A DNA stretch of 64,000 nt from positions 64,001-128,000 of the IMG/VR virus record IMGVR_UViG_3300026549_000038. One strand, written 5' to 3'. The position numbers were made by a program, and so were the translations under genes. The notes beneath the pieces are model-generated. The model did no database searches. It was not told the DNA's origin and saw nothing but the letters and a program-made list of their open reading frames with translations. Source of the DNA: a virus. Taxonomy: Duplodnaviria > Caudoviricetes. Positions within the stretch are counted from its first letter, which is position 1; every line of letters starts with the position of its first letter. Positions 8,567 through 17,492 of this stretch are shown in pieces.

Positions 8567-9334
8567 CTAAATAGTTAATTTAAAAGTAAACGGATCATAG
8601 GTTGGATGATAATCTTCATCAAGAAGAGAGACATTTCTCATCTTAGTCTCGTGCCCGGAATCAGTCACTATTGTTTCAACTTCGTGAAGTCCCGAGTGGA
8701 CATGCCCGGAAAGTACCCAATCTATCTGTCTTGGCCTAATTGTATCCGCAAGTTCCTGACATCCAAAATTTTTTCCGTAATTCCAGTTACCGTTCTGAGT
8801 AACCAATCCTTGAGATCCTATTCTAGGAGGAGTATGAGTCAACAACACTTCGCATTTCTTCGGAATACGACTAAACTTCTCTACCAGGGTTGAACTGTTT
8901 CCGTAGAATGCCCACCTGCTCAAATCAGGTATCCAAGGAGTCCCATAGAACTTATGCCCTTCTATCACGACGCTACTGTCGCAAAGAAGTTTTACAATAT
9001 GTTGTTTGTATTGATCTAGGTAGAGTTTCTTCAAGATATCAACCCCGGATCTTCGCGAACCTAGTTCTGCGCTTTCAAAAAAGAAATCATGGTTTCCGGG
9101 TATCACCAGAACATGTTTATATCCGTAATCCTTAAGCTTGTCTGTCCACGGAGTAAATTTTTGAAGCAACCAGGACACGGTTTCTAAACCACTCAGCTGA
9201 TATTTTAGCGGTACTATATCCCCACAGATACAGAGAACATCTCCAGCAGGGAAATCTGATACGCTTGGTAGATACCCATGAAGATCACTGATCGCCGTAA
9301 CATTGAGTTCTTTTTTGACTATTTTTTGATCCAT
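8567..9334 (-). CDS. Calcineurin-like metallophosphoesterase
   Basis: SDLH, CGD, GNHD, THTPP, GHVH. Confidence 0.92.
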   Translation of the reverse strand: MDQKIVKKELNVTAISDLHGYLPSVSDFPAGDVLCICGDIVPLKYQLSGLETVSWLLQKFTPWTDKLKDYGYKHVLVIPGNHDFFFESAELGSRRSGVDILKKLYLDQYKQHIVKLLCDSSVVIEGHKFYGTPWIPDLSRWAFYGNSSTLVEKFSRIPKKCEVLLTHTPPRIGSQGLVTQNGNWNYGKNFGCQELADTIRPRQIDWVLSGHVHSGLHEVETIVTDSGHETKMRNVSLLDEDYHPTYDPFTFKLTI

Positions 9335-10953: not shown

Positions 10954-11073
10954 TGACCCAGGCGGGGTTCGAACCCACGACCTTTGGTCTTAGTTCAAGG
11001 CTTTACGAGGATTTCTCCGCGGACACTCCCCAACCTTTACTTGCCAACGCTCTACCGACTGAGCTACTGGATC
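10954..11073 (-). ncRNA. tRNA-like RNA with 47-nt structured insertion in the anticodon loop
   Basis: Canonical acceptor GATCCAG/CTGGGTC, D and T arms; 54-nt segment in place of the 7-nt loop. Confidence 0.75.
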
Positions 11074-12150: not shown

Positions 12151-12376
12151 AAAATGCAACTTTTAAAATAACCCCAGAGTTGCCAACTGTGCCGACCTAC
12201 GATTCGGAGGAAAAGTATGCTTATATGAGAAGCCTTTCCCATCTTCGTTCCCTTGTACTTCGGGCTTTCTGAACAGAACTCACTATCGTTGAGCAACGCG
12301 CCACTTTACCTATAAGTGGTAACTACGAACTTGATAACGGATTAGTCGCCTCCGTCAGATGTTTTGCTAATCTGAG

Positions 12377-12449
12377 AGCCAGTAGAGGGACTCGAACCCC
12401 CGACCAATTCATTACAAATGAATCGCTCTACCAACTGAGCTATACTGGC
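12377..12449 (-). tRNA. tRNA-Thr(TGT)
   Basis: Canonical cloverleaf. Confidence 0.95.
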
Positions 12450-12574
12450 AAAAATGCCCTAAATTGAAATCTTGCAAGTAATTGTTAATTTTAGCAAACA
12501 TCAAAACGTGTCGAACCTTAATAACTGGCCGTACTTTCAATTAACAATCATTTCAACCGAGGGCAGTTGTCCTA

Positions 12575-12900
12575 TGTTGAAATCTCCGGAGTCGGTACAT
12601 GCGCTTATGCAACTAAAACCAGGCTTCCACTGGTACAAACCGTATTTCAACTTAGACTCTCTCCATCTAGTCTCTACACACTGTCTATTATTCTATATCT
12701 GCGGTCCCCTGTTCTCAGGACTATATTCATTATTGAAGTATAGCCTTGCAGTATAGATTTTAACATTGGCTCGGTGTTAGCATAACAGCCGGATTCGAAC
12801 CGGCTCCCCACTGTTAGTTGGGGGTGTCATATATCACTATGTTTTAGCCTTCACCGAATTTAGAGAGTTCTACTTCAGGAATTTCTTCCTGAGCGCTCAG
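12575..12900 (-). ncRNA. Orphan group I intron-like RNA (tRNA-Leu/IC3-like core), apparently truncated
   Basis: CTCTCTAAATTCGGTGAA, CACCGAGCCAA, GTAGAGACTAGATGGAGAG core signatures and P8-like GTTGAAAT/ATTTCAAC. Confidence 0.65.
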
Positions 12901-12902
12901 GT

Positions 12903-12918
12903 TTTTATTTCAATGAAC
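12903..12918 (-). promoter_or_regulatory. boxA-like leader element GTTCATTGAAATAAAA (copy 1)
   Basis: Identical 16-mer at 14778-14793; both sit between an AT-rich promoter region and an RNA block. Confidence 0.55.
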
Positions 12919-12948
12919 GTATAAATATATTTAACTCTCACAACTTAT

Positions 12949-13503
12949 TTAATTCTCTGGGTAGCCGCTAAGCTGGTATGCTTCGCGCAGGACCGTACGG
13001 ATATTATCCAGGCACTGTCCGAGGAGGTTCTTCCCCTGCCATTCGCTTGGCCAGTCAACTCTCGGGTCGGTGTAATGAATGCCTACACCCCAAATCTTAT
13101 CACTCGGACTTCCTTCGACGAAGTGTTTTCCTTCGAATTCTGGGTCGAGTATGAGATCTTTAAGTGCTGGATTTTGTATAAACTTTGCCATCAGGGCAAT
13201 CTCCATATATTCCTGCCTATGCTCAACCCAGTCGTCTTCTTTGAATCCCTTGACTTTTCTTCCGAGATACTTTGCATCTCTCGGGGTCTCGGCTGCACAG
13301 ATAAGACTCGCAGTCAGCTCATCGCCAAAATGAACTGCTTTAAGATACATAAACAACTGTTCAGAACTCTTAAAGACCTTGCCGTGGTATTCGACTCTAC
13401 AATTGTAAAAGTTTGACAGTCCGCTACCATAGAAAGCAACGTGTTTGTCATATATAATCAACCCGTGTCGAAGGCCAGATTCTCTTGTCTTTTCTGGTGT
13501 CAT
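12949..13503 (-). CDS. NADAR (YbiA/DUF1768) family protein
   Basis: LSNFY, SEQ.FM..KA..F.D, AK.LGR, KF.QN, EGSP.D.IWG.G, G.NLLG. Confidence 0.93.
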   Translation of the reverse strand: MTPEKTRESGLRHGLIIYDKHVAFYGSGLSNFYNCRVEYHGKVFKSSEQLFMYLKAVHFGDELTASLICAAETPRDAKYLGRKVKGFKEDDWVEHRQEYMEIALMAKFIQNPALKDLILDPEFEGKHFVEGSPSDKIWGVGIHYTDPRVDWPSEWQGKNLLGQCLDNIRTVLREAYQLSGYPEN

Positions 13504-14777: not shown

Positions 14778-14793
14778 TTTTATTTCAATGAAC
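14778..14793 (-). promoter_or_regulatory. boxA-like leader element (copy 2)
   Basis: Identical to 12903-12918; just downstream of promoter motif 14799-14826. Confidence 0.55.
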
Positions 14794-17393: not shown

Positions 17394-17492
17394 TGGTGGG
17401 AGAAGGATTCGAACCCCCAATAGGATTTAACCGAGAATTTACCCACAACCTACTCAATGAAGATTGCCTGTCTGCCATTCCAGCACCCCACC
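17394..17492 (-). ncRNA. Leu-type tRNA body with 11-nt anticodon loop
   Basis: GGTGGGG/TCCCACC acceptor, Leu-type D loop, CAATC-TTCATTGAGTA-GGTTG, long variable arm. Confidence 0.6.

Follow-up and report, generated by a model that had tools for sequence, protein, structure and literature searches.

What is the core of a group I intron doing in front of an intact tRNA gene, with no exon on either side of it? The question arises in a phage record of 160 kb in IMG/VR, for which completeness is estimated at 81%. The DNA analyzed here (the window) is a stretch of 64,000 nucleotides, bases 64001-128000 of that record, and its minus strand carries a long tRNA array as judged by both Rfam and ARAGORN. 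An earlier note made from the letters alone had placed at 12575-12900 a group I core without exons, resembling that of tRNA-Leu(UAA) introns. The core is there, but the element to which it belongs is longer, running from 12918 to 12455 and including a second P8-like hairpin that abuts the tRNA-Thr gene.

Structure of the Locus

The element, which we call the remnant, occupies a 499-nt gap between a NADAR-domain gene (12949-13503) and the tRNA-Thr gene (12376-12449). The gap is free of open reading frames other than short chance ones. The remnant (12455-12918, minus strand) comprises an IGS, P2, P3 to P6, J6/7, the 5' strand of P7, P3' and P8. It lacks exons, J8/7, the 3' strand of P7, P9 and the omega-G, and amounts to about three-quarters of an intron. 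The parts of the locus, from 5' to 3' on the minus strand, are as follows.

12949-13503, minus: NADAR-domain gene (Pfam PF08719, 131.5 bits), the left border of a variable slot
12908-12918, minus: boxA-like leader motif GTTCATTGAAA, adjoining the intron remnant on its 5' side
12893-12899, minus: IGS remnant TGAGCGC (family consensus TGAGTGC), from the family block alignment
12875-12892, minus: P2 hairpin of 7 bp with a GAAA tetraloop (Rfam and family alignment)
12862-12867, minus: P3 5' strand, paired with 12659-12664 (Rfam alignment)
12852-12858, minus: P4 5' strand, paired with 12770-12776
12781-12841, minus: cloverleaf-like tRNA mimic on P5 (fold z-score -2.9)
12806-12823, minus: anticodon-like hairpin of the mimic
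12788-12804, minus: T arm of the mimic, GCCGG-TTCGAAT-CCGGC
12686-12769, minus: P6 with a lineage-specific three-way extension (fold z-score -2.5)
12718-12725, minus: TATAGTCC word within the P6 extension, locally paired, missing from the ortholog L118 (below)
12668-12685, minus: J6/7 and P7 5' strand (GACTA at 12668-12672), an exact 18-mer common to 34 loci
12659-12664, minus: P3 3' strand (Rfam and family alignment)
12569-12657, minus: P8a hairpin, with the 11-nt GAAA receptor of the family degenerate at its base
12455-12566, minus: terminal P8-like hairpin (fold z-score -2.2) with a conserved CTTGCAAG bulge at 12471-12478
12450-12454, minus: U-run joining the terminal hairpin to tRNA-Thr
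12376-12449, minus: tRNA-Thr(tgt) (ARAGORN and Rfam), beginning directly after the U-run

Large expansions of P6 and P8, as well as of P5, agree with the earlier description, and the tRNA-Leu(taa) gene of the phage (7940-8026) is without an intron, as had also been stated. Two tRNAs detected by Rfam elsewhere on the minus strand, at 10954-11073 (120 nt) and 17394-17492 (99 nt), are absent from the ARAGORN list and are probably tRNA bodies with inserted domains.

Homology to the Group I Introns of tRNA Genes

At the Rfam gathering score only tRNAs were detected in the window; GOLLD, ROOL and the other Rfam families gave no covariance-model match at that score. A permissive search of the gap with the Intron_gpI model (RF00028) matched 12651-12926 (minus strand) with 29.2 bits and a local E-value of 1.4e-5, and no other family reached a notable E-value on the remnant. 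The alignment covers P2, P3, P4, P5, P6, J6/7 with the P7 5' strand, and P3', placing the conserved P3-P4-P5-P6 helices, J6/7 and P3' in the canonical group I order. It contains a big insertion in P5, and the P8 and P9 positions of the model are deleted. The covariance-model search proposed earlier thus returned a group I match, but one short of the gathering score of 50. That model is a weak one for this intron family, since an intact relative of the remnant scores just 17.4 bits. The Rfam seed contains no bacterial sequence, and for bacterial tRNA introns hits of at least 18 bits have been retained, with a pipeline threshold of 20 bits (Williams 2020). The cut-off of 50 is therefore a poor guide here.

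The relatives themselves were more informative. The PolB protein of the phage led to related phage records at 50-55% identity, one of which contains two loci that match the J6/7-P7 and P4'-P6 stretches at 87-92%, both inside tRNA genes. The exact 18-mer of J6/7 and the P7 5' strand recurs at 34 IMG/VR loci and a 15-mer of P4'-P6 at 70. The hosts are large gut and rumen phages, and the introns interrupt the anticodon loops of tRNA genes. Complete copies begin with a tRNA 5' half ending in the anticodon loop, followed by P1 with an IGS near TGAGTGC, P2 with a GAAA loop, P3 to P6, P8 with an 11-nt GAAA receptor, a conserved J8/7-P7' block, P9 with a P9.0 block and the tRNA 3' half. Split tRNAs rebuilt by ARAGORN include Leu-taa, Ser-tga, Lys-ttt, Arg-tct and Gln-ttg. 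P7 covaries within the family (GACTA/TAGTC, GAGCA/TGCTC and GAACA/TGTTC), P3 shows matched changes on both strands, and at least one intron, that of L110, has an HNH endonuclease ORF in the P1 loop. Layout, split tRNAs, P7 covariation and the HNH ORF together indicate that the family is mobile and IC3-like and belongs with the classical tRNA-Leu(UAA) introns, in agreement with the type assigned to the core in the earlier note.

The remnant retains 77 of the 79 family-invariant columns, through the 3' strand of P8, where the likeness ends. On these alignments we regard its homology to the tRNA-intron group I family as firm. In blastn searches of GenBank phages the remnant had no match, and an intact family member matched tRNAs and short 3'-core stretches only.

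Recombination between introns can be read directly from one locus. In L084 (IMGVR_UViG_3300021399_001898) an intron lies between a 5' exon of the tRNA-Arg(tct) type and a 3' exon of the tRNA-Leu type, an apparent recombinant that, judged by its exons, is incapable of giving a normal tRNA. Two further observations were made among the records. At L050, an intron-split tRNA predicted by ARAGORN (introns allowed) has the anticodon tta, which would read the TAA stop codon. In L006, L007 and L008, 936 residues of PolB are matched over about 4.1 kb; the polymerase gene would therefore contain an insertion of about 1.3 kb (an intron or intein).

Absence of Exons and of the 3' Catalytic Block

Downstream of P8 neither a TAGTC-type strand nor a J8/7 block was found, and the loss of the P7 3' strand after P8 noticed earlier is thereby upheld. 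A TAGTC-type word does occur elsewhere in the remnant, TATAGTCC in the P6 extension. The P9.0 block is also absent from the locus, where tRNA-Thr begins 5 nt past the terminal hairpin. Family profiles of J8/7-P7' and P9.0, run on the 160-kb genome (81% complete), found only the P8 3' strand at 12463-12480, and a search for the P7' word with one mismatch allowed gave hits at control level. No separate P7'/P9 piece of the kind that had been suggested was thus recovered. In the terminal hairpin (12455-12566) nhmmer matches the P8 3' strand only, and the base of the hairpin is a fully paired helix where the receptor would stand.

The 5' flank contains no tRNA half. With introns allowed, ARAGORN found split tRNAs around most of the relatives and none at the remnant. 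As the earlier note had it, the 5' side is not an exon; it carries the boxA-like motif. The IGS remnant could form a 6-bp pairing with 12914-12919, which falls within that motif; the pairing is weaker in L118 and involves no exon. Among the first 34 loci, the remnant is the only complete copy without the J8/7-P7' block. With J8/7, the P7 3' strand, P9, the omega-G and both exons gone, the remnant cannot bind guanosine or splice, and it is certainly not a working intron. The description of a group I core without exons therefore holds: the Intron_gpI match and the retained invariant columns attest to the core, and no tRNA half flanks it.

A tRNA Mimic Within P5

The segment 12781-12841 folds as a four-way junction closed by P5, with a perfect T arm alongside two further hairpins, one small and D-like, the other anticodon-like with a loop of 8 nt. 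The T arm lies exactly where it had been reported and has the 5-bp stem and TTCRANY loop by which we define one. The graft had been described as a single tRNA-like arm; the arm is real, but it is one branch of a cloverleaf-like junction. Neither ARAGORN nor Rfam calls the segment as a tRNA. It differs from a tRNA in being closed by P5, and it has no free acceptor end, no variable region and only a small D-like loop.

The same P5 module is present in the intact intron of L110. Four paired columns differ between the two copies; all four differences preserve pairing, and three are double compensatory changes. Across the family, 6 of 36 distinct introns have T-loop hairpins in their peripheral arms, where shuffled sequences would lead one to expect 0.3. 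The L110 module, the compensatory changes and the enrichment together argue that the P5 graft is a real, conserved peripheral module of a subfamily. As its presence in an intact intron indicates, the module is not tied to the exon-less state.

Related arrangements were seen elsewhere. An intact intron in L037 (about 1390-1500) has in its P5 an almost complete tRNA-Leu-like insert, in which a long interior separates the D arm from the T arm, GTAGG-TTCGAAT-CCTAC. L119 (about 990-1010) has a T-arm-like hairpin of its own, GTTGG-TTCGAGT-CCAAC, in its terminal P8-like hairpin. The segment 12758-12845 (minus strand) has a weak Rfam likeness to the Streptococcus sRNA SpF41 (18.8 bits, E-value 2.4), the consensus of which has the same layout of closing stem, C-rich hairpin and T-arm.

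The boxA-like Leader

The motif GTTCATTGAAA upstream of the remnant, which we read as boxA-like from its likeness to rrn leader consensus sequences, is a recurrent element. In related phages it precedes the 5' ends of mature tRNAs by 1-27 nt. It is also found in the P1 loop of CAU-type introns, 8 nt from the IGS, and the IGS of the remnant follows the motif at the same 8-nt spacing. The leader of the remnant differs from that of L118 at 1 of 44 bases and from that of L064 at 2 of 46 (compared by eye). No convincing site was found by a sigma-70 promoter scan from the NADAR gene to the remnant, and a literature search on the boxA-like word returned nothing useful.

A second copy of the motif in the window, at 14783-14793 (minus strand), heads another part of the tRNA/RNA array and has a similar AT-rich upstream region; a further one lies at 969-979 of L064. 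In L018, L045, L047 and L028 several tRNA genes are preceded by the boxA-like motif and, 15-25 nt farther upstream, by a word TTGGCAYGAT..TTG(C/T) that resembles a sigma-54 -24/-12 promoter.

The Orthologous Slot in Related Phages

Orthologous loci were retrieved through NADAR homologs; one NADAR-based locus search in IMG/VR gave no result. Three contigs from other samples are 100% identical to the remnant locus over 2.8 kb, and an identical copy is present in a 201-kb contig (ENA ERZ27252065, k141_930615). Beyond these copies the slot is hypervariable among phages with NADAR genes 88-93% identical. L118 is a diverged ortholog with the same junctions as the remnant. In its copy the GAAA of L2 has become AAAA, 2 nt are deleted, P5 carries a 40-nt insertion, the P6 extension is replaced, and a 13-nt deletion removes the P7 5' strand. 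The suggestion that relatives might show a decaying relic is thus borne out in part, by this further eroded copy. L064 and L119 keep the leader and the base of the terminal hairpin and lack the whole core; the interior of their slot is only a hairpin of about 110 nt built around the P5 extension module of another type of intron. The L056 group (L055-L063) has three small ORFs in the slot and no RNA element, and more distant NADAR contexts have protein genes there. The base and end of the terminal hairpin are common to L064, L119 and L071, with differing interiors.

Exact-word scans of IMG/VR for the remnant's own junctions and P8a interior found nothing. When metagenomes were scanned for the truncated junction, L071 was the one relevant contig, and three more hits fell by chance within coding genes. 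On the minus strand of L071, immediately downstream of a tRNA-Thr gene (9043-9126, plus-strand coordinates), there is an exon-less unit. It begins at P3 behind a similar leader, shares the P8a interior of the remnant with one compensatory pair, has the P7 5' strand replaced by a local hairpin (GTAGA-TTAAT-TCTAC), and ends with a duplicated P3'-P8 and the same closed hairpin end. In L088/L116, a complete phage of 104 kb, small ORFs flank an exon-less stretch that runs from P3 to P9.0 and has both strands of P7. Behind the exon-less core of L116 (2335-2800; G006:C1, about 19.8-20.3 kb) stands a P2-like hairpin with a GAAA loop, as though the 5' end had been carried over to the 3' side.

Sequence divergence between the remnant and L118 is uneven. 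At four-fold sites of the NADAR gene the two phages differ at 19 of 66 positions (0.29), whereas the RNA differs at 1 of 88 positions from the T-arm module through the base of P6 (12755-12842) and at 1 of 100 in P8a and the following spacer (12551-12650). Strong purifying selection was at one stage read from this contrast (about 1% against 29%), and the reading was dropped because the distribution of the cassette conflicts with the gene tree. By NADAR four-fold sites the present phage is the most distant of the set (0.24-0.29), and L118 is closer to L064 and L119 (0.15), which lack the remnant. A recent transfer of the cassette between backgrounds is therefore probable and would explain most of the identity. 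Within the RNA, substitutions relative to L118 number 7 in 91 positions of the IGS, P2, P3 and receptor parts, against 2 in 188 of the T-arm/P4-P6 module and P8a (Fisher p 0.006, from small numbers and a partition chosen post hoc).

Origin and Possible Function of the Remnant

The reading we put first, at about an even chance, is that the remnant is a by-product, unable to splice, that was left when mobile tRNA introns recombined, and that it is transcribed as the leader of a tRNA-Thr/Glu/Ser unit. Recombination among intron copies would have left only the stretch from the P1 loop and IGS through P8, set between a boxA-like leader and a resident P8-like hairpin before tRNA-Thr. A direct-repeat deletion between two boxA-like motifs, one upstream of a tRNA and one in a P1 loop, would remove exactly the 5' exon; the spacing to the IGS, 8 nt, is the same in both settings. 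The remnant would most likely be transcribed as a long folded 5' leader and most likely released by RNase P cleavage at tRNA-Thr; it would have no selected function of its own and would travel in a swappable cassette. All other complete copies checked have the tRNA 5' exon, J8/7-P7', P9.0 and 3' exon, of which the remnant has none, and the genome searched yielded no 3' piece. The Arg/Leu chimera of L084, the hypervariable slot, the eroding L118 copy and the recent cassette exchange that near-identical RNA blocks imply beside diverged NADAR genes all favor this origin. Against it, the remnant folds well and keeps nearly all invariant columns, an intact appearance that on this reading would be a matter of youth. 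The clustering of substitutions in the former core and docking parts fits the by-product reading less well. So do the exon-less cores of L071 and L088/L116, which stand right after an AT-rich or boxA-like leader, and the 100% identical sequence in three other samples; a useless stretch of 470 nt is, moreover, unusual for a phage.

The main rival is an exapted scaffold, a reading we consider plausible at somewhat less than even chances. The ribozyme would have been lost, and P4-P6 with its cloverleaf-like tRNA mimic would have been kept, together with P8a, as a folded RNA made from the head of the tRNA-Thr transcript and bound by a tRNA-recognizing protein of host or phage. Candidate partners are an elbow-reading enzyme (RNase P, TruB or TrmA), a repair enzyme of the neighboring Rnl2/RlaP set, or a tRNA-targeting defense nuclease for which the remnant would be a decoy. 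Conservation within the cassette is uneven, erosion being so far confined to catalytic and docking parts, and the mimic has kept its fold through three compensatory changes relative to L110. T-loop hairpins are enriched in peripheral arms of the family, and the terminal hairpin of L119 offers another T-arm-like element. Other exon-less cores stand behind similar leaders, and the slot resembles a phage accessory locus with alternative cargo. However, the comparison rests on just two diverged copies, probably of recent common origin; the compensatory changes may predate the loss, when both copies would have been working introns; and the cassette is missing or replaced in sister phages. More broadly, and at similar odds, the remnant could be a member of a class of free-standing group I intron-derived RNAs in large phages, kept for a job other than splicing. 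On that view a P4-P6 domain bearing the cloverleaf-like tRNA mimic, and with it a P8 hairpin, would be expressed from a swappable accessory cassette at the head of a tRNA operon. A protein that binds or cleaves tRNA would find in it a handle or a decoy of the tRNA elbow.

Continued activity through a rewired P7 is very unlikely. The 3' strand would then come from TATAGTCC in the P6 extension, an 8-mer that is the P7' word of the nearest subfamily, and the extension is weakly collinear with a P8'-J8/7-P7' block (z about 3). Nevertheless, the word is paired within a local hairpin, the P6 extension of one intact intron scores higher in the same collinearity test, and neither an omega-G nor a substrate is present. 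The idea is weakened above all because L118 has neither the P6 extension nor the P7 5' strand. Least probable of all is that the remnant is the 5' half of a split intron, with the J8/7-P7'-P9 half and 3' exon encoded elsewhere. In its favor, split introns, engineered and natural alike, are commonly broken after P8, and the genome at hand is only 81% complete. However, no 5' exon or tRNA half lies upstream, neither J8/7-P7' nor P9.0 has a match in 160 kb, and L118 has lost the P7 5' strand and L064 the whole core. The earlier suggestion of half a trans-assembling intron is not supported by these results.

If the remnant is debris, it records the recombination and decay of homing-endonuclease-driven tRNA introns in phage tRNA arrays, and it cautions annotators against taking every group I core in a phage as the sign of a split gene. 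If it has been retained, a ribozyme fold would have found a new use, in a phage accessory locus, as a structural RNA that mimics tRNA, a form of RNA-based host manipulation with few known examples. The conserved T-arm module, present in an intact intron as well, provides a direct handle for binding experiments.

Comparison with Known Systems

The classical tRNA-Leu(UAA) intron shares with the remnant its core sequence, the order P2-P3-P4-P5-P6-J6/7-P7-P3'-P8 and the GAAA loop of L2. Intact relatives of the remnant are, in addition, inserted after U34 (CUU/...) like the classical intron and have the 11-nt receptor in P8. The remnant differs from the classical intron in its missing exons, J8/7, P7 3' strand, P9 and omega-G, in its greatly expanded P5, P6 and P8, and in its degenerate receptor. 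The intron of L110 (IMGVR_UViG_3300038345_000251, a 393-kb phage) is 85% identical to the remnant over 150 nt, from the IGS to P4', and has the same P5 module. Unlike the remnant, it is flanked by both tRNA exons, encodes an HNH endonuclease in its P1 loop and retains J8/7-P7', P9 and a P9.0 block.

The exon-less units of L071 and L088/L116 share with the remnant descent from the tRNA-intron family, the lack of tRNA exons, an AT-rich or boxA-like leader and a position in or near tRNA clusters. In contrast to the remnant, L088 has the whole P3-P9.0 fold with both P7 strands, and L071 keeps J8/7 and P9 and has a hairpin in place of the P7 5' strand; the remnant, for its part, keeps remnants of P1 and P2 and is missing the 3' domain.

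The GIR1 lariat-capping ribozyme, which resides inside a twin-ribozyme intron, is likewise a group I-derived fold that no longer splices. However, GIR1 has kept its catalytic core, which the remnant has not. The CYT-18 tyrosyl-tRNA synthetase recognizes a tRNA-like surface of the P4-P6 domain of group I introns. In the remnant, where any such partner is hypothetical, the mimicry is literal, a T arm set within a cloverleaf-like junction.
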